From NCBI GenBank assembly GCA_964558415.1, contig CAZLDI010000002.1, positions 10,712 through 74,711 of the forward strand: 64,000 nucleotides of DNA. The letters run 5' to 3'. Made by a program: the position numbers and the translations under genes. This DNA comes from an uncultured Dehalococcoidia bacterium. GTDB taxonomy: Bacteria; Chloroflexota; Dehalococcoidia; SM23-28-2; RBG-16-64-32. The notes beneath the pieces are model-generated. The model did not search any database. It saw nothing but the letters and a program-made list of their open reading frames with translations, and was not told where the DNA came from. Shown in pieces: positions 10,504 through 20,085 of the stretch; the first letter of the stretch is position 1; every line of letters begins with the position of its first letter.

Positions 10504-11339
10504 CCTTCGCCCTGTACCGCCCCGGCTGTCCCCGAGCGGCGTCCATAGAACCCTTCGATCGACTGATTGACCTCCGGGACCGACGCCGTTCCCTTCGCGA
10601 GGAGCCGTTGCAGAAACTTTTCGCGGCGCCCGATCTCCCGCTCGAGGTCGCGTGGCGCGAGGATGGCCCAGTTCGCCAGGGCATCCAATTGCTCCGGCTC
10701 CCACAGGACGTCGAAGGCGTCGCGTTCGATGTCCCATTTCGCGACCGTCAGCGTTGAGAGACCGTCATCTCCATCCGGACGAAGGAGCACTACTTCCAGG
10801 ATGCGTCGCATGGCGCCACCGAGCCGTCCGATGTACATCGGGATGACGAAGGTCAGCTTCGCGATCTGGCGCGACGGTATGTGAAGGTCGTCGCGAAGCT
10901 GCCTGATGACACCGGCGGTCGTTTCATCATGCATCGTCGTCGCCAATGAGTATCCCTTCGCCAGGAGCTCGAACGCCCGGCGCGCGTTGTCGTCCCAGGT
11001 ATAGACAGGGATATGGTCGCTCATCTCGTTGATCAGGAGGTACGTCGGATACGACGGCGAGATCGGTGGAACGTCGAATGGCTCGCCGACGCCGCGCGTG
11101 AAGTAGGCGAGCGTGTCAGGCGGGGTGAACGAAAGCAGGGCCGTGACCGTCGTCGTCTTGCCGGAGTTCGGTGGCTCTGCCGCGACAATGATCGAGGCGC
11201 CGCGCTCCATCGCCACCCAGAGCATGGCTGAGAGCCGGGCGTCCATGTTCCCGGCCTTGATCAACTCGATGACAGACATTGGCACGGGCGGCTCCCAGTG
11301 CCAGCCCCACCAGCTGACCGGACGGTTCACGGCGCGCAT
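10500..11339 (-). CDS. Stand-alone VirB11/CpaF-like P-loop ATPase (C-terminal domain only)
   Basis: Walker A-like PPNSGKTT, Walker B-like LLINEM, ATTMH His box, RRILEV. Confidence 0.7.
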   Translation of the reverse strand: MRAVNRPVSWWGWHWEPPVPMSVIELIKAGNMDARLSAMLWVAMERGASIIVAAEPPNSGKTTTVTALLSFTPPDTLAYFTRGVGEPFDVPPISPSYPTYLLINEMSDHIPVYTWDDNARRAFELLAKGYSLATTMHDETTAGVIRQLRDDLHIPSRQIAKLTFVIPMYIGRLGGAMRRILEVVLLRPDGDDGLSTLTVAKWDIERDAFDVLWEPEQLDALANWAILAPRDLEREIGRREKFLQRLLAKGTASVPEVNQSIEGFYGRRSGTAGAVQGEG

Positions 11340-13402: not shown

Positions 13403-16036
13403 CTAGCCCTTAGCGATGTTTACGCTGACCGCCGACGAATCGCCATCGAACAGGCCGACAACTGCCCCGCCGTCATGCAAGAGCGGGGCGTGCAGCGCCT
13501 TCGGTAGCACGGCCTCCGTCAAGTGAGCCTTCAGGCGCAGGTCGCTGCCCCTGCTGTGCAGGACAACGGTGTCACCTTCGCTCAGGCCCAGCGTCGCCGC
13601 GTCCTCGGGGTTGATGCTCACGGCCTCTTCGCGGTGTAACCGGTCTGCGTCGGGCGAGTGGATCGCCGCTGCTTCATAGCTTGTGAACAGCGTGCGGCTC
13701 GTCATCAGCCGGAAGCCACCTCCATCGGCTGCGGCAAGCGCCGGCACATCCTGCCGCTCCGTGTGCCTGGGGCCCAGCCCGTGTAGGTGCTGCTGCGCGC
13801 CGGAGTCCATCTCACGGTAGGTGCAATCTCTGTACAGGGGGACGACCTCAGCGATCTCAGCCATGACCTCGCTGGCGCTCTGGAAGTTGATGCGGATCTC
13901 GCCGGGATTCAGTCTCGCCGCGAGCAGAGATCCAAGCTCGCATAAGATCCGCCAGCCCTGGCGCGCTTCTCCCTGCGCGGCGGCCCCCTCGTGGAGGCGC
14001 AGCACGCGGCGGTCGGCGCTCGTCGTAGTCCCTTCTTTGCTCCAGGCAGGGACGTCCGGCAGCACGACATGCGCTTGTTTCGCAGTGTCCGTCGGCAGGG
14101 AATCGACGACCGCCAGGAAATCCAGAGCCTCTAACGCCTTGCGCACGTTTGCGCGCGGTGGGGCGAGCATGAGCGGGTTGTCGTTCATGACCACAAGGGC
14201 CCTGAGCTTGCCACCGGCGATCATATCGTCGAACGACAGTCCGCTGGCCGCGGGTATAGGCGCGCCCCAGAGCCGCTCCATCTCTTTACGCGCGCCTTCG
14301 TCCGCCACGGCGCGATACGCGGGTAGCAGCTCCGGTGAACCGCCCATGTCGCGCATCCCCCACACGTTGGCCGACTGAGGGAGAAGGAAGAGCGCATCTG
14401 CGGCTGAGTCGCCCGCGCAGGTGATGGCGATGTTGGCGAGCGCCGCGGTGATCGCCTTCGTCTCGCTCGCGCCGAAGTGCGGTAGTGCATACACAACGGA
14501 AACCGGCTGCATGTCAGATTGCCTCGAGGCCGCGCTCAGGACCGCCGCGGCCGCCCGGAGCGTCTCCTCGAATTCGTCCAGTTCGCTGCCGTTGGTCGAG
14601 ACCAGCGCCCCGTCCAGCGCGGTCACCGCGACCGCCTCATCGCCCGGACGCGGTCTGATCCACACGTCGGCGAAGTCGCATAGCTCGCCCCAGACGGGGC
14701 TGATGACCACAAGCTTTGCCTTCATCCCGACGACTGCGTCCTTGACGCGCAGCGCAGCGATGTTGTGGCTCGATTCGAGGTCACCTGCCACGACGAGCAC
14801 AGTCCTGGATTTCGCAATGCGCCGCAGGTCCGCAGGCAGCACCTCGCTGCCGAACGCCGCACGAAGACTGCCGGCGGCGGCGCGCGCGACCGCGCCCGCG
14901 GTGGAGTCCACGTTGTTCGTGCCGATTACGGCCCGCGCGATCTTGCTTACGAGGTAATTCTCTTCGTTCGACGCCAGCGGCGAGCCCAGGAAGCCGATCG
15001 AGTCGGGCCCGTGCTCCTCGCGAATCTGCGCGAGACGCTCCACGGCGAACGCCAGAGCCTCTTCCCAGCTCGCGGCGTGCTGCGGGCCGTTGCGACGAAT
15101 GAGCGGGGTCTGAAGCCTCTGTGACGGCTTGACGGCGTCGTAATGAAAACGGCCGCGCACGCAGAGCTGGCTCCCACTGACCGGGTTAGCCGTCATGTCG
15201 GGCCGTACGATGACGCCACGGCCTTTCTTGCTGCCAAGCGAGATCGAGCAGCCGACCGAGCACTGGGTGCACGTTGTACCCATCCAGCGCTCCGTTTGCG
15301 TCGCGCCCCATTTGTTAGGATGCTCCATCAGCGTCGCTGTTGGGCAGACGTCGATGCACGAGCCGCAGAAGTCGCAGTTCGATTCGTGGACCTGACCGCC
15401 GGCGCCGAAGGCGATGCGAGTGCTGAAGCCGCGACCGGCAAGAGTGATCGCGCCTGTGTGGCGGATCTCGTCGCAGGCGCGGACACAGCGGGTGCAGATG
15501 ATGCACATCTGCGGGTCAAACTCCAGGAACGGATTCGCCTGGTCCGGCTCCGGTTGCTGGATGTTGTAGTAGGTGCGATCATCTCCGTCCCACGGCTCGT
15601 AGCCCGCCATCTCCAGCATCTCGCACGTGGTCTGGAGCTCGCAGCGGTAGTTCTTGGAGCACGTCAAGCAACGATGCGTGACCACGCCGTCCCGCAGACA
15701 CGTATCGCCCGGCTTGCACTTGACCACGCGGTGGCAGGTGAGGCAGCGGTCCGAGTGGTAGGAGAGGATAAGCGAGAGTACGGCCTGGCGCGTAGATTTC
15801 GCCTCTTGCGTATCCGTCCGTACGATCATCCCGTCAGCGACGCGCGTGGTGCAGGAGAGCTGGAGGCCGCGGGCGCCCTCGATATCCACGAGGCAGGTGC
15901 GGCAGCCCGCGTACGCGGGCAAGCCATCGACGTAGCAGAGGTTGGAGATGAACGTCCCGGAGTTCTTGATGACTTCGACGAGCGGAGCGCCCTCGGGCGC
16001 CTCGAGTTCGCTGCCGTTGAGTGTCAGTTTGGCCAC
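13403..16036 (-). CDS. NuoG/formate dehydrogenase alpha-like multi-Fe-S molybdopterin oxidoreductase-family protein
   Basis: N-terminal 2Fe-2S Cys set, HxxxCxxCx5C, CIICTRCVRAC, CDFCGSCIDVCP, CTQCSVGC...C, SNEENYL, C-terminal molybdopterin-binding domain. Confidence 0.85.
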   Translation of the reverse strand: MAKLTLNGSELEAPEGAPLVEVIKNSGTFISNLCYVDGLPAYAGCRTCLVDIEGARGLQLSCTTRVADGMIVRTDTQEAKSTRQAVLSLILSYHSDRCLTCHRVVKCKPGDTCLRDGVVTHRCLTCSKNYRCELQTTCEMLEMAGYEPWDGDDRTYYNIQQPEPDQANPFLEFDPQMCIICTRCVRACDEIRHTGAITLAGRGFSTRIAFGAGGQVHESNCDFCGSCIDVCPTATLMEHPNKWGATQTERWMGTTCTQCSVGCSISLGSKKGRGVIVRPDMTANPVSGSQLCVRGRFHYDAVKPSQRLQTPLIRRNGPQHAASWEEALAFAVERLAQIREEHGPDSIGFLGSPLASNEENYLVSKIARAVIGTNNVDSTAGAVARAAAGSLRAAFGSEVLPADLRRIAKSRTVLVVAGDLESSHNIAALRVKDAVVGMKAKLVVISPVWGELCDFADVWIRPRPGDEAVAVTALDGALVSTNGSELDEFEETLRAAAAVLSAASRQSDMQPVSVVYALPHFGASETKAITAALANIAITCAGDSAADALFLLPQSANVWGMRDMGGSPELLPAYRAVADEGARKEMERLWGAPIPAASGLSFDDMIAGGKLRALVVMNDNPLMLAPPRANVRKALEALDFLAVVDSLPTDTAKQAHVVLPDVPAWSKEGTTTSADRRVLRLHEGAAAQGEARQGWRILCELGSLLAARLNPGEIRINFQSASEVMAEIAEVVPLYRDCTYREMDSGAQQHLHGLGPRHTERQDVPALAAADGGGFRLMTSRTLFTSYEAAAIHSPDADRLHREEAVSINPEDAATLGLSEGDTVVLHSRGSDLRLKAHLTEAVLPKALHAPLLHDGGAVVGLFDGDSSAVSVNIAKG

Positions 16037-17956: not shown

Positions 17957-18024
17957 CGGGTTCCTCCTTCGGGTGCGTGTCGTTGGGCGAAATCGTTACG
18001 GGCTAGAATCTACTACAGTTGCCG

Positions 18025-18465
18025 ATGAACCGAAAGACCTTCCGCCGTGTCTTGAGCGCCGCCAGTGCCGTTCCGGGCGCGTATCCGCTCCTGGCGTGCC
18101 TCACGGCGCGCCGCATCGTCGTGCGCGGAGAGAGCATGTGGCCGACGTTGTCGCCGGGAGAACGCGTGATTTTCGATCGGTTGGCGTACGTCCTCCGAGC
18201 GCCGAAGGCAGGGGATATCGTTCTGGCGCGGCACCCCTCGCGGCCGGGGGTGCGGTTCATCAAGCGCGTTGCCGAAGAGCAGGGCGTTGGCGAGGGGCGC
18301 GTCAGTGAGGCGACGCAACCCCTGGGATGGACGTTGCTGGGCGATAACCCGGGTGCCAGCACGGACTCACGGCAGCTTGGGCCGTTCCGGCGCGAGGACA
18401 TCATGGCGCGCGCATGGCTGGTCTACTGGCCCTTGGAGCGATTCCGGGCGATTCGATCGCTGTAG
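18025..18465 (+). CDS. sodX: NiSOD maturation protease (S26 peptidase)
   Basis: V.GESMWPTL..G, GDIV..RHP, IKRV, GDNP..STDSR..G; divergent from sodN. Confidence 0.88.
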   Translation: MNRKTFRRVLSAASAVPGAYPLLACLTARRIVVRGESMWPTLSPGERVIFDRLAYVLRAPKAGDIVLARHPSRPGVRFIKRVAEEQGVGEGRVSEATQPLGWTLLGDNPGASTDSRQLGPFRREDIMARAWLVYWPLERFRAIRSL

Positions 18466-18485
18466 GGCCGCGTCATGATGCGCCC

Positions 18486-18995
18486 CTACCCTTCCGACTG
18501 GGACATCTTCCCGATCTGCGCTACCCACGCCGCCGGGTCCAACCGGGGCGCGTGCTTCACGCCGAGCTGGTGCATCCAGAAGTCCGGACGCTCGATGTCT
18601 GTTCTTCCACGACCGTAGGCGAGGTAGACGTCCCAGGCGAGTCCGGGGCCTTCGCCGAGGCCGATGGATTCTTTCGCGGTAATCGCGAGCGCCCGGCCCA
18701 TGCGGCGCGCAAGGTGGCGCTCGCCGTCCCAGTAGTGCTGCGCTCGACGCTCGGCGAAGCGCTCAGCCGTTAGTCGCGCCGCCGCTTCGTCATCGGGCGG
18801 CAGCATCGGCGCCCACGCGCAATAGACGAGTACATCGGCGTCAGGCATGGCCTCCAGAAGCCCCGCTCCCGCACGGGAAGCGCCCTGAAGGCACATCTCT
18901 CAAGTGGGCGAGACGATCAGGAGCAGGCGGACGTGGGTCGAGGCGGACGTGAAGTCTGAGAGAAGCGGTTCCAGAGTAGAGTCTAGCCGTAGCAT
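18486..18995 (-). CDS. Putative selenoprotein, thioredoxin-like fold, UxxC motif (TGA at 18900-18902 read as Sec), 169 aa
   Basis: MLRLDSTLEPLLSDFTSASTHVRLLLIVSPT-TGA-EMC continues in frame into the ORF-track 136-aa ORF; SECIS-like hairpin follows. Confidence 0.8.
18850..18892 (-). promoter_or_regulatory. Bacterial SECIS-like hairpin
   Basis: GCCTTCAG/CTGGAGGC lower stem; CGCT(T)CCC-GTGC-GGGAGCG upper stem; apical loop starts with G 26 nt after the UGA. Confidence 0.7.
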
Positions 18996-19039
18996 GTGGT
19001 TGTCAGGTGAAGCGCCCCGGTCCCGGTATTGGATGAGGC

Positions 19040-19696
19040 TTACGCTCGCTGTCGAGCGATAGCCGAGTCCGGAACGTGTTCGTCCGTGTACGGCGGGAAG
19101 AGCGACTCCAGCTCCCTGCGCACCGGGTCGCCTTCAGGCAGGTAGCGGCTGAAGTCGCCGCTGGGGAGCTTGCGGTCACGGTCGCCCGAGAGCTTCGCGT
19201 GCTTGATCTTCTCCTGGAGTAGCATCAACCCTTGGAGCAGCGACTCCGGGCGTGGCGGACAACCCGGCACGTAGACGTCCACCGGGATGATCAGGTTGAC
19301 GCCTGGCAGCGTGCTGTAGCCGTAGGCGAACGGCCCGCCGATTGTCGCGCAGGAACCCATGCTGATCACGTAACGCGGCTCCGCCATCTGGAGATAGATG
19401 CGGCGTACGGGCACTGCCATCTTCCACGTGACTGTACCGGCGACGATCATCAGGTCGCTCTGCCGCGGCGACGGCCGGAACAGCTCCGCGCCGAAGCGCG
19501 CGATGTCGTAGCGAGGCATCGCCGTCGCGATCATCTCCATCGCGCAGCAGGCGAGCCCGAAGGCGGCAGGCCAGAGGGAGGACCGCCGCGCCCAGTTCAC
19601 GATTCCTTCGACGGACGCCAGCATGATGTTCTGCCGTATCGACTCTTCGACGGACTCGGCGGCGGTGTCGGTGACACGAATCAGGGGCTCAACCAC
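19040..19696 (-). CDS. nuoB: NADH-quinone oxidoreductase subunit B
   Basis: [45 protein letters not shown]. Confidence 0.95.
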
Positions 19697-19728
19697 GGCG
19701 TTCTCCGATTGGGAATTGTATCACAAGC

Positions 19729-20085
19729 TCATGCGTCGGGATGGTCCCCAGGCCTCGGCCAGATGTTTCGGCGCAGAGCGGTCCCGAGTGCACTGGAAAG
19801 CAGGCATGTTCCGCTAACGAACACGACTACCAAGGCCCCCAGATATGCGCCATTCGCCGAGAGCGCAAACGCGGGCGCTAAGAGCACCAATGGAATCCCT
19901 GTGAGTAGCAGCAGCCAAACTGACATCGTCTTCGCGTTAACGAAGTACCCTACGAGGAACGCACATCCGATTATTACAGACTGCACCAGGAGCCCCGGAA
20001 TGGACTCGGACGCCAGCAGCAACGACAACGCCAGAACGGGACCTGTCAGAATGATTGTTGCCCAGGTCTCAACCAGTCTTCCCAC
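19729..20085 (-). CDS. Hypothetical membrane protein (about 4 TM)
   Basis: Hydrophobic ORF filling the gap between iscS and nuoB on the same strand. Confidence 0.55.
   Translation of the reverse strand: MGRLVETWATIILTGPVLALSLLLASESIPGLLVQSVIIGCAFLVGYFVNAKTMSVWLLLLTGIPLVLLAPAFALSANGAYLGALVVVFVSGTCLLSSALGTALRRNIWPRPGDHPDA

Follow-up and report, generated by a model that had tools for sequence, protein, structure and literature searches.

A large bacterial family of predicted thioredoxin-fold proteins, routinely shortened by gene callers, whose Dehalococcoidia member almost certainly contains selenocysteine

Does an in-frame TGA in a short gene of an uncultured Dehalococcoidia bacterium end a reading frame or specify selenocysteine (Sec), and what might the resulting protein do? 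The question arises from a stretch of 64,000 nucleotides (nt) of contig CAZLDI010000002.1 (assembly GCA_964558415.1, forward-strand positions 10,712 to 74,711; hereafter the window), in which a first-pass annotation had proposed a hidden selenoprotein with a UxxC motif. Based on the codon found at this position in relatives and on independently assembled contigs, we found that the TGA at 18900-18902 is almost certainly a real Sec codon. The features concerned are the following.

18486..18995, minus strand: complete gene, almost certainly for a selenoprotein (codon 32, Sec), to which homologues align end to end (residues 1-169)
18900..18902, minus strand: UGA, almost certainly Sec (U32), the first position of U-x-x-C; based on the column in relatives and on contigs
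18891..18893, minus strand: codon of Cys35, the partner of U32 (putative resolving or second-ligand position); based on conservation

Re-reading of the minus-strand frame agreed with the first-pass description: from the ATG at 18995 it runs through 31 codons, MLRLDSTLEPLLSDFTSASTHVRLLLIVSPT, ending in VRLLLIVSPT, then through the TGA and on into EMCLQGAS..., for a product of 169 residues (169 sense codons and a TAG stop at 18486-18488). The TGA is codon 32, in the context LIVSPT-U-EM-C, and Cys35 is invariant in homologue alignment A1 and at least 90% conserved in family alignment A2. The first-pass annotation had also stated that the track of open reading frames (ORFs) truncates this gene, which is correct, as the mechanical ORF list contains 18486-18896 only (136 residues). 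Since both this list and the public protein collection (P0002) carry nothing but the short form of the window gene, gene callers do truncate it.

Column 32 was read from the DNA at 80 loci of species-representative genomes and 80 metagenome loci. Among the 79 genome loci that cover the column, TGA was present in 63, a Cys codon in 14 (TGC in 8 and TGT in 6), CAC in one (L036) and TAA in one (L077); 76 metagenome loci cover it, with TGA in 75 and an alignment that is out of frame there in L158. Both sides of the column were conserved in the resulting 138 TGA loci, with VR.LLL.SPT before it and x-x-C-L-x-G-A after it. S-P-T preceded the column in 118 of them, and Cys stood at +3 in every motif variant listed. 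At the protein level, a word-indexed search yielded 143 proteins at E <= 0.001, and most of the 120 matches listed were 129-143 residues long and started at 'MC' right behind the TGA column. Four proteins of 169-171 residues (P0003, P0005, P0007 and P0008) carry LIVSPT-C-D-x-C, with Cys at the TGA column and the conserved N-terminus. These Cys homologues and the two-sided conservation agree with the reading of the TGA given in the first-pass annotation. An exhaustive HMMER search extended the family to 829 representative clusters at E <= 0.001 (184 at E <= 1e-10), which, by record titles, come from Chloroflexota, Acidobacteriota, Eremiobacterota, Gemmatimonadota, Planctomycetota, Myxococcota and others.

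The 31 upstream codons were conserved at the protein level in both Sec and Cys forms, and close loci possess a start codon 31 codons ahead of the U column. In contrast, a start codon two codons past the TGA is missing from 58 of the 138 Sec loci, so that the short ORF is not the conserved gene; two of the 138 have no start codon at all within the 40 codons scanned past the TGA. As a check for sequencing error, 18900-18902 was compared with the contigs of four public runs, drawn from two studies (X1 record 1, X2 record 10, X3 record 19 and X4 record 25), all of which span it without a differing letter. X1 is not independent because it may be the source sample; judging from the contigs of the second study, which reproduce the TGA, it is not an error.

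Two relatives have neither Sec nor Cys at this column, both in genomes with SelA. L077 carries TAA (L077:3079-3081), which could reflect misassembly or a pseudogene. L036 carries CAC, which encodes His in SPT-H-PTC (L036:3094-3096), and the attacking residue would be absent from its product.

Bacterial decoding of UGA as Sec involves a selenocysteine insertion sequence (SECIS) hairpin, and the first-pass annotation had placed one with two stems and a G-first apical loop 26 nt downstream of the TGA. Two hairpin features are distinguished here.

18865..18881, minus strand: conserved SECIS upper hairpin, by comparative evidence (RNAalifold and pair counts over 57 close Sec sequences)
18850..18892, minus strand: extended two-stem hairpin of the first-pass annotation, predicted by minimum free energy (MFE) folding; lower stem unconserved

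The single-sequence MFE fold does predict a hairpin at 18850-18892 (-29.8 kcal/mol), and only its upper stem was found to be conserved. In a close-clade analysis of 57 distinct Sec sequences, placed in a gap-free alignment anchored at the TGA and examined by RNAalifold and pair counts, a helix was conserved at columns 22-27/33-38 (18876-18881 with 18865-18870 of the window), where 98.2% of the cells were paired, compared with 53-70% when the partner column was slid. Fourteen cells of this stem had changed on both sides, and its covariation score was reached by none of 500 shuffles. Pair 24/36 was CG in 42 sequences, UA in 11 and UG in 4, and broken in none; this coupling is unexplained by protein coding, because each column falls on a third codon position (of Ala GCY and of Gly GGR). 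On the other hand, the lower stem (18885-18892/18850-18857) was paired in 47.1% of the cells across relatives and was found in the window sequence only. The loop at 18871-18875 reads CGUGC, with G29 and G31 invariant, and begins 24-25 nt past the TGA. Thus, the upper stem and the G in the loop of the earlier description were retained, while the lower stem and the distance of 26 nt were not.

Distant Sec sequences (n=66) showed a stem as well, at columns 13-19/25-31, with 79.9% of the cells paired, 70 double-change cells and a score that none of 500 shuffles reached. At least six of the seven pairs were formed in 47 of the 66 distant Sec forms versus 0 of 13 Cys forms (Mann-Whitney p = 6e-6), and the 19 Sec exceptions include copies whose stem is shifted by one register. 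Comparative evidence shows the hairpin at 18865-18881 to be a clade-conserved SECIS element following the UGA. The stem starts 18 nt past the UGA in the window's clade versus 9 nt in distant clades, and the element has moved along the coding sequence while the protein alignment stayed gap-free.

Analysis of the window's own genome, a 2.93-Mb assembly, revealed all of the Sec machinery that the first-pass annotation had suggested looking for. SelA matched with 465 bits (cut-off 22.8), SelB with 334 bits summed and SelD with 370 bits and one in-frame TGA, and a tRNA-Sec with anticodon UCA is located at C3:112651-112747. The selD gene lies outside the window (G000:C6:8496-9425, minus strand) and is a selenoprotein gene itself (SCAG-U-AGK), its TGA being followed about 25-45 nt downstream by a 9-bp hairpin with a GGUCC-type loop. 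A SelA search, made irrespective of the completeness of metagenome-assembled genomes, took in 50 of the 79 loci, among them 34 out of 63 Sec-form genomes and 14 Cys-form genomes, and detected SelA in 31 of the 34 Sec-form genomes (28 at E <= 1e-28, three weak or partial), three being without a match. In the genome of L071 (Planctomycetota-type), the SelA match itself contains one in-frame TGA (G012:C1:507447-508541).

The AlphaFold2 model, built on a 60-sequence family alignment, was confident (predicted local distance difference test, 96.2; predicted template modelling score, 0.92). It places a strand at 22-28 and U32 immediately before helix 33-49, in line with the first-pass suggestion that the TGA takes the place of the first Cys of a thioredoxin CxxC behind a beta strand. 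As this domain is confidently folded, strand 1 and the first active-site residue would be absent from the short form. The top Foldseek matches in the PDB were thioredoxin-fold proteins only, namely DsbF, poplar GPx5, ResA, TlpA-like proteins, CcmG and Sco1 (E 5e-4 to 4e-3, TMq 0.43-0.57, identity 8-18%). In this predicted thioredoxin fold, Sec occupies the attacking position, and Cys follows after one helical turn. The 'Trx-fold selenoenzyme' proposed at first was therefore supported with respect to fold and Sec, whereas 'enzyme' stays a presumption. Residues conserved at 90% or more were F15, R23, S29, P30, T31, U/C32, C35, G38, W61, L103, A120, W121, D122, Y124, P137 and W140, P137 being the sole such Pro outside the motif.

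Sequence libraries gave this family no name. The window protein had no Pfam and no NCBIfam match at E <= 10, and no thioredoxin-clan sequence model of either library was matched above threshold among 60 members. Sub-threshold matches only were seen in these members, to Thioredoxin_4 in six (best E = 0.0053) and to Redoxin in four (best E = 0.029); a scan for a match in any member at E <= 1 listed 22 families, and T4_deiodinase (PF00837), GSHPx (PF00255) and PF00578 were matched by none of the 60. A sequence-profile search of the PDB reached E = 0.054 at best, and the 30 clusters nearest to a Cys homologue in the ESM Atlas were all 'hypothetical protein', with no common Pfam family. Within the libraries searched, and as far as database records can tell, this is a large bacterial family without a name that is routinely shortened by gene callers.

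The family was compared with several known systems. The best structural matches are reductases of the TlpA/ResA/CcmG/DsbF type (3ios, 2f9s, 1st9, 1kng and 4evm; TMq 0.43-0.54), and many family members are, like these, predicted to be exported or lipoproteins. TlpA reduces Cys-based metal sites (Sco, CoxB). However, identity to this group is 8-18% at E ~1e-3, SPT-[U/C]-x-x-C stands in place of W-C-x-x-C, a conserved cis-Pro loop was not identified from sequence conservation, and the window's clade is predicted to be cytoplasmic because it has no N-terminal extension. The likeness to the MerP/HMA and MerT relay lies in a two-chalcogen T-[U/C]-x-x-C site, in the HMA fusion of some members and in the genomic position of distant members, next to a CC-motif, MerT-like membrane protein that a MerR-type regulator would control; the fold is thioredoxin rather than ferredoxin-like, MerA was not seen in two extended loci, and the window gene has no MerT/MerR neighbours. 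The first-pass annotation had remarked that SxTU loosely recalls deiodinases (PF00837). The S-x-T-U motif on a thioredoxin/peroxiredoxin-like fold is indeed shared, but the absence of PF00837 matches noted above and the continuation of the motif as x-x-C argue against membership; the deiodinase motif continues P-x-F. With glutathione peroxidases (GPx, PF00255) the likeness is at the level of the fold, W121-D122 being conserved and an equivalent of their Gln not.

Thioredoxin-fold selenoproteins with UxxC are well known. Table 1 of a 2026 review (PMC13188914) lists Trx, Grx, Prx-like thiol:disulfide oxidoreductase, thiol:disulfide interchange protein, 'thiol-disulfide isomerase-like' cd02966 and Redoxin-family UxxC proteins, each with a Pfam, NCBIfam, CDD or PANTHER identifier. 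As such proteins are presented in the available portions of the literature, the present family resembles them in having Sec in place of the leading Cys of CxxC where helix 1 begins, in having Cys homologues, in a SECIS element directly downstream, in caller-truncated genes and in being common in Dehalococcoidia. It differs from the families of that table in having no Pfam or NCBIfam match, a comparison confined to the models of these two libraries (cd02966 and cd02970 are CDD-only entries). A general link between Sec and heavy metals, with MerT-family, SO_0444 and SaoT selenoproteins, has been described by Haft and Gwadz (10.1101/2022.07.06.499078), in the available portions of which the present family is not described. 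Likewise, a literature search that included passages of PMC13188914, PMC9312934 and PMC13326102 found no description of it, and supplementary tables may list the family. On account of the lack of a Pfam or NCBIfam match and of a published description, we have filed it as a new family; it may be an uncatalogued one, of the well-known UxxC thioredoxin-fold kind.

Genes around distant members were clustered by single linkage over 80 sources. A neighbour cluster of CC-motif membrane proteins (21 loci by eye), CopZ-N-terminal-like ORFs and DF-family-like ORFs was found in 23 of the 80 sources, and MerR-type regulators near a family member in 19. Representatives of the cluster gave the following matches.

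MerT-like representatives, two loci: PF02411, 33.7 and 58 bits (cut-off 32.9)
MerT-like representative: NF010314, 64.5 bits (cut-off 150)
CopZ-N-terminal-like representative: NF047645 (CopZ_Nterm_CC), 118.6 bits (cut-off 100)
DF-family-like representative: NF049942 (DF family (seleno)protein), 32.7 bits (cut-off 70)

Compact clusters of a MerR, a DF-family or CopZ-N-terminal-CC, a MerT-like and a family-member gene are seen at L177:8333-10600 and L178:9255-11140, where several of the adjoining families are catalogued (seleno)protein families. A strongly hydrophobic stretch precedes the domain in 35 of 79 loci, several with lipobox-like LxxC segments, the N-terminus of most distant members being hydrophobic, and 4 of 10 long homologues scanned have an HMA domain fused to the family domain. 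P0125 and P0127 contain two copies of the domain (P0125 also HMA and a C-terminal Thioredoxin_3-like part), P0150 combines it with an aspartyl-protease domain, and P0181 with beta-lactamase and PDZ.

The window gene has different neighbours, which the first-pass annotation had described as nuoB and sodX/sodN in a redox island.

19040..19696, minus strand: NuoB-like (Oxidored_q6) paralogue; PF01058, 92 bits
18019..18465, plus strand: sodX, maturation peptidase (S26) of nickel superoxide dismutase (NiSOD); PF10502 (Peptidase_S26), 69.8 bits
17456..17956, minus strand: sodN, nickel superoxide dismutase; PF09055, 123.4 bits

This context was confirmed, but it is conserved in the closest clade only: the NuoB-like, sodX and sodN neighbours were each found in 8 of the 80 sources (window included), all of them close Chloroflexota relatives. 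The NuoB-like gene ends 44 nt upstream of the selenoprotein gene on the same strand and is probably co-transcribed with it; a scan of 18300-19900 predicted no promoter and no terminator. Past the stop of the selenoprotein gene, sodX follows after 20 nt in convergent orientation, and sodN comes next. The genome has two Oxidored_q6 genes, the window copy being the second and the other lying at G000:C1:153309-153644. The window copy is flanked by a class-V aminotransferase gene and the selenoprotein gene, and a scan of flanking ORFs showed no further nuo gene; the aminotransferase gene and sufB lie upstream, at higher window coordinates. About 2.5 kb downstream, beyond sodN, an ORF without in-frame stop (13403-16036, minus strand) encodes an 877-residue NuoG/formate-dehydrogenase-like molybdopterin protein with N-terminal 2Fe-2S and 4Fe-4S domains. 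A 133-residue ORF antisense to sodX (18003-18404, minus strand) has no Pfam match and is probably a shadow ORF of GC-rich DNA.

Considering all of these data, we believe that the best explanation is a cytoplasmic thioredoxin-fold selenoprotein of 169 residues, whose UGA32 is decoded by means of the downstream hairpin, and we assign this reading a probability of roughly 85%, a role at a metal site being less certain. As the comparative evidence shows, UGA codon 32 is decoded as Sec by the SelA, SelB, SelD and tRNA-Sec of the genome, directed by the hairpin. Sec32, at the N-terminus of helix 1, takes the place of the attacking cysteine of thioredoxin, with Cys35 one helical turn on. A selenol-thiol site, for redox chemistry or for soft metals, is most likely what the pair forms. 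The selenolate may attack an oxidised cysteine or a soft-metal thiolate of a client protein, and Cys35 would then resolve the adduct as a selenenylsulfide. For the exported relatives the likely clients would be MerT-like 'CC' membrane transporters in MerR-regulated clusters, and for the window's clade the candidates are the NuoB-like Fe-S protein encoded next to it or, in NiSOD, the nickel hook formed by Cys2/Cys6. By its position, the NuoB paralogue is also a candidate recycling reductant. That proteins of this family service Cys-rich metal sites, much as TlpA acts on Sco/CoxB, is a tentative suggestion, to which we would give slightly less than even odds.

Several observations weigh against this reading. 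The window hairpin alone is unexceptional in stability (z = -1.5; 20 of 200 shuffles fold equally well). MFE z-scores against codon shuffles, computed on the 60 nt past the codon for 125 Sec and 14 Cys sequences, did not separate the two forms (Sec mean 0.00 versus Cys -0.16, p = 0.77), and the register-specific pair counts given above have replaced them; Rfam at E <= 10 yielded chance matches only and no SECIS family. Of the 14 Cys-form genomes, 10 have SelA too; the presence of SelA fits the Sec reading yet is not discriminating. As to function, no His is conserved at 90% or more that could complete a Sco-like metal site. The scores of the MerT-like proteins are near or below curated cut-offs (33.7 versus 32.9 in Pfam; 64.5 versus 150 in NCBIfam), and neither MerA nor HMA/MerP was matched in Pfam or NCBIfam among ten selected ORFs of two distant loci extended to ~19.5 kb. 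The window's own clade has no MerT-like or MerR neighbours, and sodX, being convergent, is outside the transcript of the selenoprotein gene.

We regard it as extremely improbable that the TGA is a genuine stop or results from an error, in which case a 136-residue product would start at ATG 18896 and the upstream 31 codons would be noncoding or a separate peptide, or the gene would be a pseudogene. An ATG two codons past the TGA is present in the window and likewise in 80 of the 138 Sec loci, callers and public databases record the short form only, and relative L077 has TAA at the column. The remaining 58 Sec loci have no start codon there, however, and the short form would miss strand 1 and the first active-site residue. 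The conservation of the upstream codons in Sec forms and in the continuous Cys forms, the covarying hairpin behind the TGA and the identical TGA in contigs of two studies all argue for read-through as well. With the selenoprotein reading retained, its function could also be that of a peroxidase of the GPx/Prx type that removes the H2O2 produced by NiSOD, Cys35 resolving the selenenic acid. GPx structures occupy ranks 2, 4, 6 and 8 of the fold matches (TMq 0.47-0.52), sodN is ~0.5 kb away, and W121-D122 is conserved 89 residues past U32; in GPx4, the distance from Sec to the W-N of the catalytic tetrad is ~90 residues. Against these points, no Gln equivalent is conserved, and the scan of 60 members at E <= 1 gave no match to PF00255 or PF00578. 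A U-x-x-C pair set on a single helical turn is characteristic of disulfide exchange, a peroxidase does not fit the MerT-like surroundings of most family members, and sodX and sodN are outside the transcription unit of the selenoprotein gene. A peroxidase seems very unlikely.

A further alternative to attack on a client cysteine is that the protein binds soft metals and hands them on: an exported member would be a MerP analogue passing Hg(II) or another thiophilic metal to the MerT-like CC protein, and the cytoplasmic clade of the window would be a metallochaperone, for example for NiSOD. This is possible but doubtful. MerT-like and MerR genes adjoin distant members in 23 and 19 of the 80 sources, and with no HMA/MerP gene in the two extended loci the exported member is their only candidate periplasmic partner, but the same neighbours are absent in the window's clade. 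T-[U/C]-x-x-C resembles the MTCxxC motif of HMA domains, with which some long homologues are fused, Sco is among the fold matches and sodN/sodX are neighbours in 8 sources; on the other hand, the nearest structures are mostly thiol-disulfide oxidoreductases and peroxidases, and no third ligand is conserved at 90% or more. It is unlikely, though conceivable, that the ancestral job was metal capture on selenolate/thiolate at MerT-like transporters, as a Se-based replacement of MerP, and that the window's clade was re-deployed for the Cys2/Cys6 nickel site of NiSOD. If true, the latter would be the first dedicated NiSOD accessory factor besides the SodX peptidase.

In our preferred reading, that of a Sec-containing thioredoxin-fold protein, recognition of the Sec codon restores the true protein for a family of 829 clusters that is stored publicly mostly as N-terminally truncated 'hypothetical proteins' without the active-site residue, and most copies in the sampled loci carry Sec. 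This would justify a family model for annotation pipelines. The repeated placement of family members in MerR/MerT-like clusters, beside DF family and CopZ-N-terminal CC/CU (seleno)proteins, offers one more candidate for the connection that has been proposed between selenocysteine and mercury-like metal handling, and the NiSOD-linked cytoplasmic clade provides a testable lead on how nickel superoxide dismutase may be serviced in Chloroflexota.

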